Shown: positions 9,850 through 18,011, counted from the stretch's first letter. The stretch is 64,000 nt of DNA from Solirubrobacterales bacterium (GCA_036494495.1 DASXOF010000133.1:3315-67314), one strand, 5' to 3'. The notes: a model not told the origin generated them from the sequence alone. A program made the numbers and translations.

Positions 9850-11415
9850 CTAACCCCCGAGGCGGAAGGCGACCAAGGCCGGTTTCTGACCTTCGGCGAC
9901 GGCGATCCCGGCCGGCACCAGCAGGGTGTCGCCGTCGACAGCGAGGCCGGTGTTCGAACCGGCCGGCAGGCTCCCCGACCAGACTTCGCCGCCGGTCTTG
10001 GCGTCGAGGCCGCGGACCGTGCCTTCGAAGCTGCTGACGAAGACCATGTCGTTGACCGCGGTCGGGGCGCCGTAGACCGGCGTCGGCGAGTGCTGCTGCC
10101 ACTCGACCTTGCCGGTCGCGAGGTCGAGCGCGACCAGTTCGCCGGTGTTTTCCGAGCCCTGGCCGAGCTCGGTTCCAGAGGCGAGCTGCAGCGGGTCGTT
10201 GACGACCGGCACGAACAGCGTCGTCTCGTTCGCCGCCATCGGCGCGATCACGCCGCCGAGGATCCCCGGGTAGACCGTCCCCAGCTTGATCTTCGAGTAT
10301 TCGCCGCGCATCGCGTGGAGCGAGTCTTCGTCGTGGCCGTTGTGCTTGCCGACCGGCGTCTTCCAGACCGGCTTGCCGGTCTTGGCGTCGACGGCGACGA
10401 CCATCCCCGACTTGCCGGCCCCGATCGCCAGCTCCCGGCCGCCGGCGCTGGCCAGGATCGGCGGGTCCTGGAGGTCCCAGTCGTAGATGTCGTGCGGGGT
10501 CTGCTGGTAGAACCAGTCGAGCTTGCCGGTCTTGGCGTCGAGCTTGACGATCGAGTCGGTGTAGAGGTTCGGGCCGGGGCGGCTCGAGCCCCAGGGATGG
10601 CTGCCCTCGCCCGGGAACGGCACCGGGTTGCCGACCCCGAAGTACATCCCGCCTTCGCCGTCGAAGGAGGGCGAGTACCAGAGGCCGCCGCCGGCGTTGA
10701 CCGCCTTGTTGCCCCAGAGCGATTTCGGCACGGTGTCGAAGTGCCAGGCTTTCCTGCCGGTCTTGGCGTCGAGGGCCCACAGCGTCCCGACCCCGCCCGA
10801 GGGATATTCGGAGCGGACGTTGGTCGGCACGGTCGAGACGTAGACCAGCCCTTCGTGGTAGCCGGGGGCCATGTCGATCGCTTCGGTCGAGCCGTCGGCG
10901 AGGTGCACCGACCACAGCTCTTCGCCCGTTTCGCGGTCGAGGGCGAAGGCCTTGGTCGGGGTCGCGCCGAAGACCGCTTCGCCGCCGACCGTCACCCCGT
11001 TCGGGCCCTGGTCGGGTTCGGAGTACTGCTTCGCCCAGAGGACCTTGCCGGTCTCGACTTCCACCGCCTGCACATTCGACTCGAGGTCCTGGACGTAGGC
11101 GACGCCGCCGGCGATCACCGGGGTCGCCGAGATCGCCCCGTAGGAGCTTTCCGCGGTCAGCGGCAGCGACCACGCTTCTTTCAGCTTGCCGGCATTGGCG
11201 CGTTCGATTTCGGCTTCGGGGTTGCGGGTGTTCGCCAGGTCGGTGCCGGGATAGGCGTCGCCGCTGAAGCTGACGTCGCCCGAGCCCGAACTCGAACCGG
11301 ACCCGCCGCCGGTGCCAGAACCTCCACCAGTGCCCGAGTCGCCGCCGCCACACCCCGCCGCAAACGCCAGCACCAGCACGATCGCGATCGCCCCCACCGC
11401 GTGGATCACCCGCAT
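9850..11415 (-). CDS. PQQ-repeat beta-propeller lipoprotein (PQQ-dependent dehydrogenase-like)
   Basis: The lipobox is LAFAAGC, followed by a Gly/Ser linker. Repeated motifs include LDAKTGK..W and the sequence HDIYDWD. A strong SD (GGAGGA) sits 19 nt after the upstream gene's stop. Confidence 0.75.
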   Translation of the reverse strand: MRVIHAVGAIAIVLVLAFAAGCGGGDSGTGGGSGTGGGSGSSSGSGDVSFSGDAYPGTDLANTRNPEAEIERANAGKLKEAWSLPLTAESSYGAISATPVIAGGVAYVQDLESNVQAVEVETGKVLWAKQYSEPDQGPNGVTVGGEAVFGATPTKAFALDRETGEELWSVHLADGSTEAIDMAPGYHEGLVYVSTVPTNVRSEYPSGGVGTLWALDAKTGRKAWHFDTVPKSLWGNKAVNAGGGLWYSPSFDGEGGMYFGVGNPVPFPGEGSHPWGSSRPGPNLYTDSIVKLDAKTGKLDWFYQQTPHDIYDWDLQDPPILASAGGRELAIGAGKSGMVVAVDAKTGKPVWKTPVGKHNGHDEDSLHAMRGEYSKIKLGTVYPGILGGVIAPMAANETTLFVPVVNDPLQLASGTELGQGSENTGELVALDLATGKVEWQQHSPTPVYGAPTAVNDMVFVSSFEGTVRGLDAKTGGEVWSGSLPAGSNTGLAVDGDTLLVPAGIAVAEGQKPALVAFRLGG

Positions 11416-11434: not shown

Positions 11435-12796
11435 TCAACCTGACTCCGCCGTCACTGCAAGTCGCTCCCCGGCGAGCTCCGGCAGCAGCGGCTGCAGGAC
11501 CCGGTTGGCGGTCAGCCCGAGGCAGCCGAGGTTGGCGAACCCCGGCCCCTGGCTGAGGCCGCCGAGGCCGGGGATGTGAAGTCGCGGCGAGAGGCCGCGC
11601 AGCTCCAGCGCCCGGCCGATCGGGACCTCGGTCCCCGGCGGCGTGTCCCAGACCTGACCGGCCTCGCGCTCGACCACGGCCCGGACCTCGTCGGAGAAGA
11701 GGCTGCGCAGCTGCGCCAGCAGGTCGAAGCCGGTGCAGTTGACGACGTAGTCGAACTCGGCCGCCACCACCCCGCCCGGCGCCTCGTACTCGAGGCTGAG
11801 CGCCTCACCGCTCGCGGCGAGGCCGGCGTGGAGGGCGCGGCCGACCTCGAACGAGGAGTGCCCGTCGCCCGACAGCGAGGCGATCACGCCGGCGTCGAAG
11901 ACGCCGCGGTCGGCGTGCTTGACGAAGTCGCGGCGGGCCTGCTGGTCGAGCCGTTCCCAGCTGACGTCGTCGGGGTCGGCGAAGACCCGGTTCTCGAGGA
12001 AGCTCTCGCCGCGGCTCATCGGCAGGAGCGGCGTGAAGACGGTGAGACTTGCGAGCGGCCGGAAGGCGCGGAGGAAGACGAGGGCGCTGAGGGCGCTCTC
12101 GCCGCCGCCGAGGATCGCGATCTCGACCTCCTCGTCCTCGGCGATGCCGGCGAACTCCGAGCGGCGGCTGTCGCAGTGGAAGAGCCGCGGCGCCGCCGCC
12201 GGGTCGTGCGGCAGGGCGCGGTGGACGCCCGGGCCGGTCAGCAGCAGGGCGCCGCCGACGTGGCGCTCGGGGTCGTCGGGCTGGCCGCGCTCGGTCACCG
12301 CGATCGCCCAACGCTCGGGGTCGTCTTCGATCGTCACCGACTCGACCCGGCCGTGCAGCAGCCGCACCCCCTCGGTTGCGCGCTCGAGCACCCAGCTCAG
12401 ATAGGCGCCGTAGTCGCGGTGGCGGACCGAGGGCGCGCCGGAGTTGACCCAGCCGGCGTACTCGCCGCGTTCGATCGCGTAGCGCTGCCAGCTGAACGGC
12501 AGGAGCGCCGCGTCGATCGCGTCGCCGGCGGCGCCGAACTGCCGGTAGCTGCGGTACGGGAAGCCGACGTCCTTGATCGGCGGGATCGCCAGCGGCTCCT
12601 CGCCGGAGGTCATCCCGTTGCGGCCGAGCCAGGACGCGGCGGGCTCGGTTTTCTCGACGATCGTCAGCGTCAGCTGGCCGAGGCCGAGCCGGTTGACGAC
12701 GTGGACCTTGGCGGCGATCGCCGCCGCCTTGGCGCCGGCGCCGACAATCAGGAGGTCGGCTTCCGGCGGCGCCTCCGTCTGGCTTGCGGTGCTCAT
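11435..12796 (-). CDS. FAD/NAD(P)-binding monooxygenase (lysine/ornithine N-monooxygenase-like, tentative)
   Basis: Two dinucleotide-fold motifs are present (LLIVGAGAKAAA and IAILGGGESALSA). ATG 12796 overlaps the P450 stop (ATGA). Confidence 0.6.
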   Translation of the reverse strand: MSTASQTEAPPEADLLIVGAGAKAAAIAAKVHVVNRLGLGQLTLTIVEKTEPAASWLGRNGMTSGEEPLAIPPIKDVGFPYRSYRQFGAAGDAIDAALLPFSWQRYAIERGEYAGWVNSGAPSVRHRDYGAYLSWVLERATEGVRLLHGRVESVTIEDDPERWAIAVTERGQPDDPERHVGGALLLTGPGVHRALPHDPAAAPRLFHCDSRRSEFAGIAEDEEVEIAILGGGESALSALVFLRAFRPLASLTVFTPLLPMSRGESFLENRVFADPDDVSWERLDQQARRDFVKHADRGVFDAGVIASLSGDGHSSFEVGRALHAGLAASGEALSLEYEAPGGVVAAEFDYVVNCTGFDLLAQLRSLFSDEVRAVVEREAGQVWDTPPGTEVPIGRALELRGLSPRLHIPGLGGLSQGPGFANLGCLGLTANRVLQPLLPELAGERLAVTAESG

Positions 12797-14085
12797 CAGG
12801 CGACCGGTTCGGCGATCACCAGGCCGCGCCTGGCGGGCGCGAAGGAGATCGCGGATTTCTTGATCGCCTCGCCGCGCCGCTCGGCCGGTTCGAGGCGGAC
12901 GCTCGCGAGCACCGTGCGGATCACCCGCTTCATCTCCATTTCCGCGTAGGAGGCGGCGAGGCAGCGGCGGACGCCGCCGCCGAAGGGGATCCAGGTGTAG
13001 GTGCCGGGCGGCGTCGCGAGGAAGCGCTCGGGGAGGAAGCGGAGCGGTTCGGCATAGTTCGCCGGGTCGCGGTGGACGAGGTGGATGCAGGGCGCGACCG
13101 TGGTCCCCGCCGGCAGCTCGCGGCCGGCCAGCCGCAGCGGCGCCAGCAGCCGGCGGACCACCACCGGCACCGGCGGCCGCAGCCGCAGCGTCTCCTTGAT
13201 CACCGCGTCGAGGTAGGCGTCGCCCTCGCCCGCCAGCACCTCCTCGCGGGTCCGGGCGAGCACGTCGGGGTTGCGCAGCAGCCGCTCGAAGGCCCAGGCG
13301 AGGGTGCTCGAGGTCGGGCCGTCGGAGAGCAGCGTCACCAGTTCGTCGCGCAGGTCGCGCTCGCTCATCGGCGAGCCGTCCTCGTAGCGGGCGCGGACCA
13401 GCATCGAGACCACGTCGCGGGGCTCCTCCTCGGGCTCGGCGCGGCGGCGGCGCGCCTCGGCGATCACCGCTTCCTCGACCGGCCGCATCGCCTCCCGGTA
13501 GCCGCGGCTGCGGGTCATCGCGCCGGGGCCGAAGGCGGCGAGCAGGGCGAGGTTGCGGGGGCTGTTGAGCCAGGCGGTGAGGCGGCGCAGGCGCTCGCGC
13601 AGGCCGTCGAGGCGGCGGTTCTCGCCGGAGCCGAAGACCGCCCGCATCACCACCTCCTGGGTGATCTCCTGCATCCGCGGCCAGAGCTCGAACGGCTCCC
13701 CCACCGGCCAGCGCTCGACTTCCTGCCGCGCCACCGTCGCCATCATCTCGGCGTCGGCCTGGACCGCGCCGCCGTGGAAGGAGGGCAGCATCAGCTTGCG
13801 CCGCTGCAGGTGCTCGGGTTCTTCCATCAGCATCACCGAGCGCGGGCCGAGGACCGGCCCCAGCAGCGGGTTGGCGAGGTCGACGCCGACCGCCTCGCCG
13901 GCGGTGAAGACGGCTTTGACGTCGGCCGGGTCGCTGAGGATCACCCAGTCGCCCCAGTGCATGATCCGCAGCGTGAAGGCGTCGCCGTACCGCCTGTGGC
14001 AGCGCTCCAGATAGGGCAGCGGCCGTTGCGTCCAGGCGACCGCCTGCATCGCCCGCGGCAGCCGCGGGCCGGGTGGCATGCTCAC
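12796..14085 (-). CDS. cytochrome P450
   Basis: The heme-thiolate loop is FGGGVRRCLAASYA and the ExxR motif is in KETLRLRPP. GTG 14085 overlaps the upstream stop; the alternative start is ATG 14079. Confidence 0.9.
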   Translation of the reverse strand: MSMPPGPRLPRAMQAVAWTQRPLPYLERCHRRYGDAFTLRIMHWGDWVILSDPADVKAVFTAGEAVGVDLANPLLGPVLGPRSVMLMEEPEHLQRRKLMLPSFHGGAVQADAEMMATVARQEVERWPVGEPFELWPRMQEITQEVVMRAVFGSGENRRLDGLRERLRRLTAWLNSPRNLALLAAFGPGAMTRSRGYREAMRPVEEAVIAEARRRRAEPEEEPRDVVSMLVRARYEDGSPMSERDLRDELVTLLSDGPTSSTLAWAFERLLRNPDVLARTREEVLAGEGDAYLDAVIKETLRLRPPVPVVVRRLLAPLRLAGRELPAGTTVAPCIHLVHRDPANYAEPLRFLPERFLATPPGTYTWIPFGGGVRRCLAASYAEMEMKRVIRTVLASVRLEPAERRGEAIKKSAISFAPARRGLVIAEPVA

Positions 14086-14405
14086 GCCGCCCGCTCCCGG
14101 CCCAGCCGGCGTTCGCGCTCGAGCCGGTCCATCAGCTCGTCCTCGGCCCGGCAGGTGGCGGCGATCAGCAGCTCGAAGAGGTTGGCGGTGAAGTCCGCCG
14201 GCAGCTCGACCGCGGCGCCGCGGTCGAGGTAGCGCCGGCGCACGACCTCGACCCGGTCGGGCTGCATCATCGCGATCTCGTGCTCGCTCTTGTAGACGGC
14301 GACTTCGCGGCAGATCTGGAAGCGCTCGCCGAGCAGGCGGGCGACCTCCTCGTCGATCACGTCGAGGCGGTCGCGGAACGGCTGCAGGCCGCCGGTCTCG
14401 CTCAT
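14082..14405 (-). CDS. AroQ-class chorismate mutase-like protein (candidate 4-amino-4-deoxychorismate mutase)
   Basis: The 107-aa product reads MSETGGLQPFRDRLDVIDEEVARLLGERFQICREVAVYKSEH...QPDRVEVV. ATG 14405 overlaps the upstream stop. Confidence 0.75.
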   Translation of the reverse strand: MSETGGLQPFRDRLDVIDEEVARLLGERFQICREVAVYKSEHEIAMMQPDRVEVVRRRYLDRGAAVELPADFTANLFELLIAATCRAEDELMDRLERERRLGRERAA

Positions 14406-15385
14406 GCCGCCTCCCCGAGCAGGCCGGAGGCGAAGGAGTGGGCGCAGGCGGCGAGCGCGTCGACCGCGTAGCCGCCCTCCTGGACGACGCAGACCGGCCG
14501 CTCGCAGGCGGCGAGCAGGGCGCCGATCCGGGTGAAGACCTCGGGCTCGAGGCCCCAGTTGCCGTGCGGGTCGCCGCGCACGGTGTCGTAGCCGAGCGAG
14601 ACGACCAGCGCCGCCACCGAGGCGGACAGCGCCTCGACCGAGGCGGCGACCTCGGCGACGTAGGCGTCGGCGTCCGGCGCCTGGTCGAAGGCCAGCGCCC
14701 GTTCGCCCGGCAGCCGCGGCAGCTCGGTGCCGGCGGGGACGTTGGTGACCGGCGCCGCGTGCAGCGAGTGCAGGGTGGCGAGCGGGCCGTCGCCGTTCCG
14801 CTCCGGCAGGCGCTCCAGCAGGGCCGAGGTGCCGTTCGGGTAGTGGAGGTCGAGGTCGAGGACGCCGATCGGCCGCAGGCCGCCGTCGAGCAGGGTCCGC
14901 ACCGCCGCGGCGGCGTTGTTCAGGTAGCAGTAGCCGGCGTGGAAGGCGGGGCCGGCGTGGTGGCCGGGCGGGCGGCAGATGGCATAGGTGAACTCGGCCC
15001 CGGCGAGGGTCCGCTGGGCGGCGCTGATCGCGGTCCGCACCCCCTCGCGGGCGGCGGCGACGAGGCCGGCGTTGATCGGGATGTCGGGCTCGAGGCCGGG
15101 CGGCGCGAACTCCGCCATCACCACCGGCTCCTCGCCCTCGAGCCGTTCGAGCGCCGCCAGGTAGTGGGGCTCGTGCAGGGCGCCGAGGGTGCGGGCGACG
15201 GTGGCGTCGGCGGCGTCGGCATCGAGGGCGCGGACGCCGCGATGGCGGACCAGGCCGGCGCGGAGCGCGATCAGCCGCGCGTCGCTGTCCTGCCCCGGCA
15301 GCCGCTCCACTCCTTCGCGCACCCAGAGCGAGGCGCCGCCGCGGCCGGCCTGGCGCCGCTGCTCGATGATCACCAGTTCGCTCAC
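14402..15385 (-). CDS. histone-deacetylase/acetylpolyamine-amidohydrolase family deacetylase
   Basis: Motifs present are RPPGHHA, DLDLHYPNGT and QEGGY. GTG 15385 overlaps the GNAT stop (GTGA). Confidence 0.8.
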   Translation of the reverse strand: MSELVIIEQRRQAGRGGASLWVREGVERLPGQDSDARLIALRAGLVRHRGVRALDADAADATVARTLGALHEPHYLAALERLEGEEPVVMAEFAPPGLEPDIPINAGLVAAAREGVRTAISAAQRTLAGAEFTYAICRPPGHHAGPAFHAGYCYLNNAAAAVRTLLDGGLRPIGVLDLDLHYPNGTSALLERLPERNGDGPLATLHSLHAAPVTNVPAGTELPRLPGERALAFDQAPDADAYVAEVAASVEALSASVAALVVSLGYDTVRGDPHGNWGLEPEVFTRIGALLAACERPVCVVQEGGYAVDALAACAHSFASGLLGEAA

Positions 15386-15855
15386 GCCGCCGCCCCGTTC
15401 GTGCCGAGCAGCAGGCGCATGCGCGGACCGAGGTGCTCGAAGCCGGCGCCGCGGTAGAAGGCCTCGGTCTGATCGAGGGCGGCGAAGCCCTCGCGCGGCA
15501 GACCGACCTCGAGCCGCGCCACCCCCTGCTCGCGGGCGCGGTCGGCCAGCGCCGCGACCAGCTCGGCGCCGATCCCGCGGCTGCGCCACGCGGGGTCGAC
15601 CCAGAGGTCCTGGATCGTCGCGTAGCGGCCGGGGACGTGGATCGCCCGCTGCCAGGAGGCGGCAAGGACGCCGACGATCGCGCCGTCCTCCTCCGCCACC
15701 AGCAGCTCCCCCACGCCCTGCCCGTCGATCAGCGCCGCCACCTCGGCCTCGAGCTCGGCCGCCTGCGGCCGCCGCCCGCCCAGCTCCTCGAGCAGCGCCC
15801 CGACGCCGGCGGCTACCGCGTCGGCGTCCGCGCCCGTCGCCGGCCGCACGCTCAC
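15382..15855 (-). CDS. GNAT family N-acetyltransferase
   Basis: The 157-aa product has an acetyl-CoA binding-type segment (WRSRGIGAELVAAL). GTG 15855 overlaps the PabAB stop. Confidence 0.8.
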   Translation of the reverse strand: MSVRPATGADADAVAAGVGALLEELGGRRPQAAELEAEVAALIDGQGVGELLVAEEDGAIVGVLAASWQRAIHVPGRYATIQDLWVDPAWRSRGIGAELVAALADRAREQGVARLEVGLPREGFAALDQTEAFYRGAGFEHLGPRMRLLLGTNGAAA

Positions 15856-18011
15856 GCCGCCGCCTCCAGCGGCTCGAGCTCGACGCTCCAGGCGGTGCCC
15901 TGCTCGGCGGAGCCGGTCACCGCCTCGGCGATCGCGGACATCGGCGCCCGCGCCTTCAGCAGGATCTCGTCGAACTCCTCCTCGGGGTCCGACTGCATCA
16001 CGATCGCGCCGCCGGCGCCGATCGTCGTCCGCCCCGGCCGCATCACGATCGTCCGGATCACGATCGAGAGGTCGGTGGCGCCGTCGAGCCCGAAGTAGCC
16101 GATCGCCCCCGAGTAGACGCCGCGCGCCTCGGCCTCGAGGTCGTCGATGATCTCCATCGTCCGCTCCTTCGGCGCCCCGGTCATCGAGCCGCCCGGGAAG
16201 CAGGCGCGGACGCACTCGGCGGCGCTGCGGTGGCGCTCGAGCCGGCCGGTGATCGTCGAGACCACCTGGTGGACGGTCGCGTAGGGCTCGACCACCATCA
16301 GGTCGGGGACGCGGACGCTGTCGATCTCGCAGACCCGGCCGAGGTCGTTGCGCAGCAGGTCGACGATCATCAGGTGCTCGGCCCGGGTCTTTTCGTCGGC
16401 GGCCAGCTCGCGGCGGCGGGCCTCGTCCTCGGCCGGGTCCTCGGCGCGCGAGATCGTCCCCTTGATCGGGCGGGCCTGGACGGTGCGGTCGCGGCCGACC
16501 GAGAGGAAGCGCTCCGGCGAGGAGCTGACGATCGCCCGCTCGCCGAAGCGCAGGAAGGCGGCGAACGGGGCGGGGTTGGCACGGCGCAGGCGTCGGTAGA
16601 GCGCGAACGGGTCGGGGCTCGCGTCGGTCGAGATCTGGTCGGTCAGGCAGACCTCGTAGGACTCCCCAGCGGCCAGTTCTTCCTGGCTGCGGACGATGTC
16701 GGCGAGGTAGCGCTCGCGGCCGCGGCCGCAGCGGAAGGAGACGTGGGCGCCGGGCTCGGCCGGCGGGGCCAGCGGCGCCTCCGGCGGCGGCGCGGCGATC
16801 CACATCTCGACCAGCTCGCAGGTCTCGGCGAACCAGCGCTCGGCCTCGGGGTCCTGCTCGCGGGCGAGGGCGAAGACGTGGCTGCGGCGACTGGCGTGGT
16901 CGACCGCGACCACCCGGTTGGCGAGCATCAGCATCGCGTCGGGGAGGTCGGAGCGGTGCTGGTTGACGGCGCCGCAGTCGGCCTTCAGCTCGTAGCCGAG
17001 GTAGCCGACGTAGCCGCCGACGAGGCCCTTGGCGATCTCGGGCGGCGCCTCGAGGCGGTTGCGGGCGAGCTCGCGGTCGAGCAGGTCGAAGATCGAGCCG
17101 CGCTCCTCGAGCTCGCGGCCGCCGCGCCGCACCCGCGTCCGCTTCTCCTCGACGTCGTATTCGAGCAGCGCCTGGCCACGGCCGGCGCTGGTCCCCATGT
17201 AGGAGGCCTGGGCGAGCCAGGTCGGGGCGTCGGCGCTGTCGAGCCAAAAGCTCGACTCGGCCGCGGCGAAGAGCCGTTCGTAGAGCTGCTCGGGCGGGGC
17301 CTCGCCCTCGAAGCTGCGTGCCATCAGCCGCAGGCGCCCGTCGGCCCTGGGAGTCGACGGGTCGGGGACCGAGGCCTGGGGCCGGTCCTCCTCCCGCCAC
17401 CGACGGGCGGCCCTGCGACTGCGGCTCGCGAGGAAGTCGTCTGCGAGCGAGTAGAAGTTCTCGGCGATCGCGCGGCCGTGCTCGGTGGCGATCGACTCGG
17501 GGTGGAACTGGACGCCCCACATCGGCCGCTCGGAGTGCTCGATCCCCATCACCACGCCGTCGTCGGCCCAGGCGGTCTCGTGGCCCTGCGGGCCCATCGG
17601 GCTGGTGATCGCGAGCGAGTGGTATCGGACCACCGAGAAGTCCTGCGGCAGGCCGGCGAAGAGGCCGGTGCCGTCGTGGCGGACGCGGCTGAGGCGGCCG
17701 TGCATCGCCATCGGCGCGCGGCTGACGCCGCCGCGCAGGAGGTTGCCGATCCCCTGGTGGCCGAGGCAGATCCCGAGCACCGGGATCTCGCTGTAGCGGA
17801 GGATGTCGCGGCAGACGCCGAAGTCGTGCCAGCGTTCGGGCCGGCCGGGGCCGGGCGAGAGGACGATCGCGTCGAAGTCCGAGCGCGAGAGCACGCGCCA
17901 GCTGACCGCGTCGTTGTTGACCACGACCGGGGCCTCGCCGGAGGCGGCGGCCAGCAGGTGGAAGACGTTGTAGGAGTATGAGTCGTGGTTGTCGACCAGG
18001 AGCGTCCTCAT
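15852..18011 (-). CDS. pabAB: fused glutamine amidotransferase / aminodeoxychorismate synthase (PabA-PabB fusion)
   Basis: ATG 18011 begins MRTLLVDNHDSYSYNV. The GATase motifs are GICLGHQ and FHPES. The PabB-type motifs are RPIKGT (Lys, not the Ala of TrpE) and FPGGSMTGAPK. The N-terminal 570 codons of track ORF 15852..19721 are an artefact. Confidence 0.9.
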   Translation of the reverse strand: MRTLLVDNHDSYSYNVFHLLAAASGEAPVVVNNDAVSWRVLSRSDFDAIVLSPGPGRPERWHDFGVCRDILRYSEIPVLGICLGHQGIGNLLRGGVSRAPMAMHGRLSRVRHDGTGLFAGLPQDFSVVRYHSLAITSPMGPQGHETAWADDGVVMGIEHSERPMWGVQFHPESIATEHGRAIAENFYSLADDFLASRSRRAARRWREEDRPQASVPDPSTPRADGRLRLMARSFEGEAPPEQLYERLFAAAESSFWLDSADAPTWLAQASYMGTSAGRGQALLEYDVEEKRTRVRRGGRELEERGSIFDLLDRELARNRLEAPPEIAKGLVGGYVGYLGYELKADCGAVNQHRSDLPDAMLMLANRVVAVDHASRRSHVFALAREQDPEAERWFAETCELVEMWIAAPPPEAPLAPPAEPGAHVSFRCGRGRERYLADIVRSQEELAAGESYEVCLTDQISTDASPDPFALYRRLRRANPAPFAAFLRFGERAIVSSSPERFLSVGRDRTVQARPIKGTISRAEDPAEDEARRRELAADEKTRAEHLMIVDLLRNDLGRVCEIDSVRVPDLMVVEPYATVHQVVSTITGRLERHRSAAECVRACFPGGSMTGAPKERTMEIIDDLEAEARGVYSGAIGYFGLDGATDLSIVIRTIVMRPGRTTIGAGGAIVMQSDPEEEFDEILLKARAPMSAIAEAVTGSAEQGTAWSVELEPLEAAA

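Follow-up and report, generated by a model that had tools for sequence, protein, structure and literature searches.

A candidate PapC-less branch from chorismate to 4-amino-4-deoxyprephenate in a tRNA-linked operon of Solirubrobacterales

Where does a chorismate branch lead when neither of the enzymes expected to finish it is encoded beside it? This question is raised by an operon in a 64,000-nucleotide stretch of DNA from a Solirubrobacterales bacterium (GCA_036494495.1 DASXOF010000133.1:3315-67314; hereafter the window), which encodes a fusion of PabA and PabB, predicted to make 4-amino-4-deoxychorismate (ADC), together with a 107-residue AroQ-type mutase. The initial annotation of this DNA had found neither a PabC-type lyase nor a prephenate-dehydrogenase-like PapC with the pair, and had proposed an aminodeoxyprephenate branch with missing downstream steps. 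Our analysis supports this proposal: the genome holds a second PabAB fusion, the operon mutase is an extra one, PapC was not found, and the nearest relatives of the mutase outside its own lineage lie in PapC-type cassettes. We consider it probable that the operon specifies a specialised chorismate branch, separate from folate and phenylalanine/tyrosine synthesis, in which ADC would be converted to 4-amino-4-deoxyprephenate and the route finished by an enzyme other than PapC.

The window comes from the metagenome-assembled genome of an uncultured organism (3.37 Mb in 200 contigs, 95% complete) and has a G+C content of 70-76%. Genes were called from third-position GC profiles, open reading frame calls and a codon-usage gene call.

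The PabAB fusion and its partner mutase

Strong family evidence indicates that the PabAB fusion converts chorismate to ADC. The protein contains GATase (PF00117, 1.4e-42), Anth_synt_I_N and Chorismate_bind (PF00425, 1.1e-88) domains, and it passes the TIGR00553 pabB equivalog model with 365.7 bits against a cut-off of 328.4, while every trpE model of NCBIfam falls far under its own cut-off. The lysine of PIKGT and the motif PGGSMTGAPK, which the initial annotation had taken as ADC-synthase signatures, are both in place (RPIKGT at residue 515, PGGSMTGAPK at 606), and the TrpE of the same genome reads PIAGT at the position matching PIKGT, with the alanine that marks anthranilate synthases. The glutaminase half carries GICLGHQ at residue 80 as well as HPES. 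Orthologues with 61-90% identity occur in all related loci and form their own long-branched clade in the PabAB tree (100/100).

In a gap-free alignment with the E. coli chorismate mutase 1ecm, the operon mutase retains R11, R28, K39 and R51, which we take from the 1ecm structure to be the catalytic basic residues, and has Q48, V52, T84 and E88 in place of the D48, E52, S84 and Q88 of the E. coli enzyme. Its best NCBIfam match is TIGR01803 ('CM-like'), under the cut-off. It is nearer to 1ecm (2e-4) than to the lyase PchB (a weak E of ~0.02), and has an ADC synthase rather than an isochorismate synthase as its partner.

The relatives of the mutase are more informative. In a sample of 400 genomes spread across the phylum, only three genomes outside the lineage have a match at E < 1e-15 (42-44% identity, E ~1e-16), all remaining matches showing 37% identity or less. 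Each of these three mutases lies in a one-strand cassette in which a CM_2 gene, a PabAB fusion and a prephenate-dehydrogenase-like gene follow one another in this order; a class I/II aminotransferase is added in two of the cassettes, and the neighbours of one include ATP-grasp ligase, MFS, methyltransferase and oxidase genes. The operon and cassette mutases have in common the motifs K39...PMMQPxRV52 and T84-C-x-x-E88-D, where ordinary AroQ mutases of the sample have DPxRE. The initial annotation had suggested a phylogeny of the mutase, and in our maximum likelihood tree (24 mutases, ~100 columns) the operon clade (97/94) is sister to one cassette mutase (87/90) and falls with the cassette mutases and a set of CM_2-glyoxalase fusions in a group supported at 82/83, apart from the canonical mutases. 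Because its three nearest relatives outside the lineage are all found in mutase-PabAB-PapC cassettes, we infer that the 107-residue protein is a PapB-type 4-amino-4-deoxychorismate mutase. The fusions in the tree are an observation in their own right: in one actinobacterial family (L098-L102, for example L099:991-1776) a CM_2 domain is joined to a glyoxalase/VOC domain, and these proteins share the non-canonical QPxRV and E88 with the PapB-type mutases.

Mutase and ADC synthase are linked at all related loci. The span 14082-18011 resolves into four genes rather than two, and the coupling of the pair in one operon, as initially annotated, holds in so far as a chain of 4-bp overlaps runs through each junction from the gene of an arginyl-tRNA synthetase (ArgRS)-like protein to the mutase gene; the two genes are, however, not adjacent, since genes for a GNAT N-acetyltransferase and a deacylase intervene. 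The cytochrome P450 gene that follows can be started at a GTG at 14085, giving a 4-bp overlap with the mutase stop like that at the other junctions, or at an ATG at 14049, leaving a 32-bp gap; it overlaps the next gene, that of a flavin N-monooxygenase, by 1 bp. All genes of the operon, from the tRNA to the propeller lipoprotein, lie on the minus strand, and no terminator-like site was found on its coding strand. Divergent aminotransferase and amidohydrolase genes at 22606-24908 were considered as pathway members and rejected, as their synteny is absent in relatives.

Other chorismate enzymes of the genome and the search for PabC and PapC

Four chorismate-binding enzymes are encoded in the genome: the operon PabAB, a second PabAB, TrpE and a fourth, shorter one; all five closed (single-contig) genomes of the genus have the same four. 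The second PabAB fusion, on contig C143, is 50% identical to the operon copy and passes the pabB cut-off. The initial annotation had tied its proposal to the presence of another pabB in the genome, and this fusion provides it. PabC-like Aminotran_4 genes lie on contigs C28, C121 and C143, with aminodeoxychorismate lyase models as their best NCBIfam matches, below the cut-offs. With the second PabAB and the PabC-like genes at hand, and with the four enzymes retained in the closed genomes, the operon PabAB is not needed for folate. No Aminotran_4 (PabC-type) match was found on the window's contig, in line with the initial annotation, and the second PabAB and the PabC-like genes elsewhere led us to reject a folate role for the operon copy.

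The mutase is likewise an additional copy, since an AroH-type mutase is present on contig C109, which rules out the AroQ protein as the primary mutase of the cell; the genome also encodes a single prephenate dehydratase and a single TyrA. PabAB and the AroQ protein of the operon are therefore best regarded as extra copies, and a plain folate or phenylalanine/tyrosine role is unlikely.

The absence of PapC extends well beyond the operon. No prephenate-dehydrogenase-family match was found on the window's contig, and a PapC hidden elsewhere in the genome was looked for and not found. Three PapC-like queries from the cassettes had no match at E <= 1e-3 in the 95% complete source genome, and in the five closed genomes of the genus their matches did not rise above noise; in each of these six genomes the single match to PF02153 over the cut-off is TyrA. 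On this point the initial annotation is borne out in all six genomes.

The tRNA-linked operon and its other genes

The chorismate genes are part of a larger conserved block (Table 1). Eight genes occur in identical order, at 55-90% identity, in every related locus with sufficient contig reach; these loci number about 60 and represent three or more genera of one family. Read from its head, the conserved order is a private tRNA, the ArgRS-like gene, PabAB, the GNAT, the deacylase, the mutase, the P450, an NbtG-like N-hydroxylase and the propeller lipoprotein. A genus of a second family (g314) has the same genes as two divergent units, one with the tRNA, ArgRS-like gene, PabAB, GNAT, deacylase and mutase and the other with the P450, N-hydroxylase and propeller.

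More distant loci retain only part of the block. At locus L127 (10001-13917), orthologues of the ArgRS-like protein (48%), the deacylase (49%) and the N-hydroxylase (51%) lie side by side, with a propeller orthologue (54%) 8 kb away, and no PabAB, GNAT, mutase or P450 was found within 10 kb on each side; the L127 lineage is not among the members of the class-wide 400-genome sample. A second genome has the same trio of ArgRS-like protein, deacylase and Lys/Orn N-oxygenase, with PabAB, GNAT, mutase and P450 likewise absent from the 10 kb on each side. As these loci keep only three of the genes, PabAB, GNAT, mutase and P450 seem to form an accessory module set on an older core of ArgRS-like protein, deacylase and N-hydroxylase with its private tRNA. 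The three-gene core suggests an older pathway centred on lysine N6, onto which the aminoaryl module was added.

Table 1. Features of the operon in the window, and tRNAs beside ArgRS-like genes at other loci. Coordinates count from the first letter of the window unless a locus is named.
Feature	Position	Strand	Basis or match
Private tRNA, anticodon UGU, upstream of the ArgRS-like gene	19717-19789	-	ARAGORN
Divergent ArgRS-like paralogue, first protein gene of the operon, core gene	18008-19663	-	weak tRNA-synt_1d, 1e-5
PabA-PabB fusion, predicted ADC synthase, 719 aa	15852-18011	-	GATase + Anth_synt_I_N + Chorismate_bind; TIGR00553
GNAT N-acetyltransferase, 157 aa	15382-15855	-	Acetyltransf_1, 2.3e-15
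HDAC-fold metal-dependent deacylase, 327 aa	14402-15385	-	PF00850, 3.4e-38
AroQ (CM_2) mutase, probably PapB-type, 107 aa	14082-14405	-	PF01817, 4e-17
Cytochrome P450, 417 aa (429 aa if GTG start)	12796-14049	-	PF00067, 1.9e-53
Flavin N-monooxygenase, NbtG homologue, 453 aa, core gene	11435-12796	-	PF13434 + PF13454
PQQ-dehydrogenase-like beta-propeller lipoprotein, last conserved gene of the block	9850-11409	-	PQQ + PQQ_2 repeats, ~1e-40
tRNAs beside ArgRS-like genes	L127:9661-9733; L141:6722-6795; L143:3552-3624; L144:16103-16175; L145:10918-10991

The ArgRS-like protein scores 84 bits against TIGR00456, whose cut-off is 262. A housekeeping function was ruled out, as a canonical three-domain ArgRS is encoded on contig C110 and the paralogue is missing from most genera of the family; within the order it occurs in 6 of the 81 genera sampled. 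The wider family comprises about 190 clusters (50% identity) at E < 1e-30 in an exhaustive profile-free search, and the ESM Atlas offers only clusters labelled 'hypothetical, tRNA-synt_1d'. A search of the literature accessible to us found no paper on an ArgRS-like paralogue in biosynthesis or on a PapA/PapB set without PapC; queries on ArgRS-like paralogues, on aminoacyl-tRNA-synthetase-like proteins with N6-hydroxylysine and on aminodeoxyprephenate returned only the canonical PapABC systems and hydrazine synthetases resembling methionyl-tRNA synthetase.

The private tRNA stands upstream in 52 of 52 related loci with enough reach. It is 58% identical to a canonical tRNA-Thr(UGU) on contig C167, a tRNA also present in all five closed genomes of the genus, and it was therefore rejected as an ordinary tRNA-Thr(UGU); it is 69-78% identical to the tRNAs beside distant ArgRS-like genes. 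The anticodons of these linked tRNAs vary with lineage: UGU in the window, UAA in g314, UAG at L127 and UCU in G118 and G727. ArgRS is among the synthetases that need tRNA for amino acid activation (PMC2034488), which makes a private tRNA cofactor or carrier a sensible reading.

Several further observations concern the tRNA and the ArgRS-like family. The ArgRS-like-linked tRNAs of other lineages resemble a tRNA-Arg(UCU) more than they do threonine tRNAs. ACA, the codon for the anticodon of the private tRNA, makes up 0.34% of threonine codons in 2378 confidently called genes; GCA, CCA, TCA, CGA and GGA take shares of their own families that are 4-8 times larger, and only CTA (0.30%) and GTA (0.62%) are similarly rare, these figures being somewhat biased because the gene set was picked with a codon model. 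The source genome has a second ArgRS-like paralogue (C169:16681-23044, L088), 36% identical to that of the operon, which adjoins a truncated protein resembling leucyl-tRNA synthetase (LeuRS) and genes for the alpha and beta subunits of lysine 5,6-aminomutase; L128 contains a coupled LeuRS-like/ArgRS-like pair as well. At L092:266-5505 an ArgRS-like member heads an operon with a P450, an Aminotran_4 protein, GTP cyclohydrolase II and a Rieske protein, and another operon headed in this way contains a phosphopantetheinyl transferase, an adenylation-thiolation didomain, a guanidinoacetate-type N-methyltransferase and a GNAT.

The remaining enzymes give fewer clues to the chemistry. No NCBIfam model passed for the GNAT, which is not of the siderophore acyltransferase family. 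The P450 has only distant CYP4, CYP51 and CYP170 relatives as its nearest solved structures, and neither the PDB nor NCBIfam gave a substrate clue for it or for the GNAT; it accompanies PabAB and the mutase everywhere, and none lies within 10 kb of the core at L127. The nearest solved relatives of the deacylase are acetylpolyamine amidohydrolases (PDB 9gkz and 3q9b, ~1e-27), and its translation shows PPGHHA, DLDLH, GYD and EGGY. The N-monooxygenase matches the lysine N6-hydroxylase NbtG (PDB 4d7e, 'L-Lys monooxygenase') over its full length at 1.8e-60. The propeller is syntenic at all related loci and has 'acido-empty-quinoprotein' as its best NCBIfam match, under the cut-off. The P450 and the flavin monooxygenase are thus both present, as the initial annotation had stated, but its view of them as the only redox enzymes needs qualifying, since the propeller is a further possible redox protein, albeit an extracytoplasmic one. 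In the closed genomes G007 and G016 (L028 and L029), the P450, N-hydroxylase, deacylase or propeller match falls into several frame-shifted pieces, which may reflect either long-read indel error or real decay.

Proposed route, alternatives and known systems

We propose that the PabA-PabB fusion would convert chorismate and glutamine to ADC, and that the PapB/CmlD-type mutase, to judge from its relatives and gene linkage, would rearrange ADC to 4-amino-4-deoxyprephenate. Oxidative decarboxylation to p-aminophenylpyruvate might follow, most likely by the co-inherited P450 or else by the housekeeping TyrA, and a general aminotransferase could then yield p-aminophenylalanine. The likely role of the GNAT is to acetylate an amino group on one of the intermediates. 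The deacylase might take this acetyl group off again at a later stage, although at the core-only locus it is found without a GNAT. The flavin monooxygenase belongs to the older core with the ArgRS-like protein and deacylase, and is for that reason an unlikely processor of aminodeoxyprephenate. As the N-hydroxylase and deacylase genes are found without the ADC genes, and the propeller is extracytoplasmic, the P450 and TyrA remain as candidates for the aromatising step, and on weak grounds we place the P450 first and TyrA second.

A number of observations weigh against this route or parts of it. The source genome is a draft of 200 contigs and 95% complete, though the five closed genomes agree with it. 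The core-only loci were viewed over 10 kb on each side, and the genomes concerned could encode PabAB and the mutase outside that range. Support in the mutase tree is moderate, as is to be expected from 100 columns, with 87/90 at the key node, and at 42-44% identity to the cassette mutases the AroQ protein could have switched to a pyruvate lyase or a plain chorismate mutase. In the PabAB tree a 97/98 branch separates cassette PapA from the operon and housekeeping copies. The operon PabAB thus falls outside the cassette PapA clade, so that it and the mutase were probably recruited separately, not acquired together as a pap cassette; a joint origin of this kind, which we considered, finds no support in the tree. 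The assignment of the P450, finally, draws on co-occurrence and a lack of alternatives, weak grounds to which must be added that in g314 the P450 shares its transcription unit with the N-hydroxylase and not with the mutase.

These points leave room for other readings of the same genes. If the mutase makes 4-amino-4-deoxyprephenate, the ring could stay non-aromatic, with the GNAT stabilising the allylic amine and the P450 oxidising the ring; cyclohexadienyl and cyclohexenyl amino acids derived from prephenate occur in bacilysin and as dihydrophenylalanine. Such a route would fit the missing PapC in the source and five closed genomes, the GNAT and deacylase between PabAB and mutase, and the co-inheritance of the P450. 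We nevertheless think it unlikely, because the operon encodes no BacA/AerD-type prephenate decarboxylase or reductase, an aromatising enzyme could be at hand in the single TyrA or the P450, and no natural product from a non-aromatised aminodeoxyprephenate is known to us. A shade less likely still is a role of the AroQ protein as an ADC-cleaving pericyclic pyruvate lyase, analogous to PchB, an AroQ-fold lyase that acts on isochorismate; p-aminobenzoate would then arise without PabC and be tailored by the rest of the operon. This explanation requires neither PabC nor PapC, has a precedent in the existence of AroQ-fold lyases, and draws on the PchB match at E ~0.02, on a best NCBIfam hit to a 'CM-like' subfamily rather than to a chorismate mutase equivalog, and on the replacement of the E. 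coli residues E52 and Q88. The same substitutions are, however, common to the cassette mutases, whose PapC-like neighbours need aminodeoxyprephenate and not p-aminobenzoate, and the PchB match is weaker than that to the E. coli chorismate mutase.

The remaining alternatives place one or other enzyme in primary metabolism. An ordinary chorismate mutase, supplying prephenate or balancing chorismate flux with PabAB acting independently, would account for the CM_2 fold and the four retained catalytic basic residues; yet the genome already has its AroH mutase, the protein lacks the DPxRE signature of the canonical AroQ mutases in the sample, every one of its nearest relatives is linked to PabAB, and it is missing from the core-only loci, which lack PabAB too. 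We judge this quite improbable. Least credible of all, and in our view very improbable, is a folate-pathway PabAB trapped in the operon: the protein scores above the pabB cut-off just as the second PabAB does, but the genus has conserved that second copy elsewhere, PabC-like genes likewise lie outside the operon, and the operon PabAB never occurs uncoupled from the mutase, GNAT and P450 and forms a long-branched clade of its own. The branch through 4-amino-4-deoxyprephenate with a finish other than PapC thus remains the reading that we favour.

As the aminoaryl genes are accessory to the tRNA-linked core, the aminoaryl unit may be a building block for the core's product. Going further, and as a tentative and rather doubtful proposal, the PapC-less branch would be the amino-acid-building half of a cassette with its own tRNA and synthetase, its aminoaryl or non-aromatic product being joined to, or replacing, an N6-modified lysine made by the core, loaded onto the private tRNA by the ArgRS-like enzyme, and then either handed on in activated form on a carrier or, with lower probability, used in decoding a rare sense codon such as ACA. 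The long retention of PapA/PapB-type enzymes without PapC would imply either a new aromatising enzyme, the P450 or TyrA, or a new fate of 4-amino-4-deoxyprephenate, and the operon that contains the branch belongs to the core genome of uncultured Solirubrobacterales that are abundant in soil. Since the branch sits in an operon headed by a private tRNA and an ArgRS-like gene, it is the most chemically readable entry to an undescribed tRNA-linked pathway, and the identity of the aminoaryl intermediate, once known, would restrict the range of molecules on which the ArgRS-like enzyme may act.

Parts of this arrangement have parallels in known systems. The pyrrolysine cassette pylT-pylS-pylBCD, composed of a tRNA gene, a synthetase-family gene and genes for an unusual amino acid, has the same layout as the window, where a tRNA is followed by a synthetase-family gene and by genes that would build an unusual amino acid. 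The operon differs in its class I ArgRS-like protein, in sense anticodons that vary by lineage (UGU, UAA, UAG and UCU) and in a core that also occurs without the aminoaryl genes, and there is no evidence here of ribosomal use. The mycobactin and nocobactin loci, with the accessory enzymes MbtI, MbtG/NbtG and MbtK, likewise bring together a chorismate-utilising enzyme, a homologue of lysine N6-hydroxylase and a GNAT; the window, by contrast, has no nonribosomal peptide synthetase or polyketide synthase, an ADC synthase in place of a salicylate synthase, and a GNAT outside the siderophore acyltransferase family. With PchB the operon shares a small AroQ-fold protein, weakly similar at E ~0.02, coupled to an enzyme of the MST (menaquinone, siderophore, tryptophan) family, but the partner here is an amination enzyme rather than an isochorismate synthase, and the relatives of the mutase are PapC-linked. 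The folate pathway of PabA, PabB and PabC has the same first enzyme and signature (PIKGT, TIGR00553); in the window no PabC is linked to the operon PabAB, and PabC-like genes and another PabAB are located elsewhere in the genome.

The closest parallel is that of PapA, PapB and PapC, to our knowledge the only described route to p-aminophenylalanine and one widely used in metabolic engineering. The window resembles it in the pairing of a fused PabAB ADC synthase with a small AroQ mutase whose nearest relatives are cassette mutases, and in keeping a separate PabAB for folate. PapA/PapB/PapC in pristinamycin, CmlB/CmlD/CmlC in chloramphenicol and PFLU_1771/1772/1770 in Pseudomonas fluorescens make p-aminophenylalanine, and papB-papA-papC is the canonical arrangement in all three (PMC6148955, PMC4863162); the three cassettes that hold the relatives of our mutase match it. 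The window departs from this arrangement in that the operon and genome are without PapC, PabAB and mutase are split by the GNAT and deacylase, PabAB stands outside the cassette PapA clade, and the setting is a tRNA/ArgRS-like core-genome operon of small-genome soil bacteria rather than a sporadic antibiotic cluster. As far as sequence can go, these likenesses and differences support a PapC-less variant of the PapABC route inside a hitherto undescribed tRNA-linked operon.

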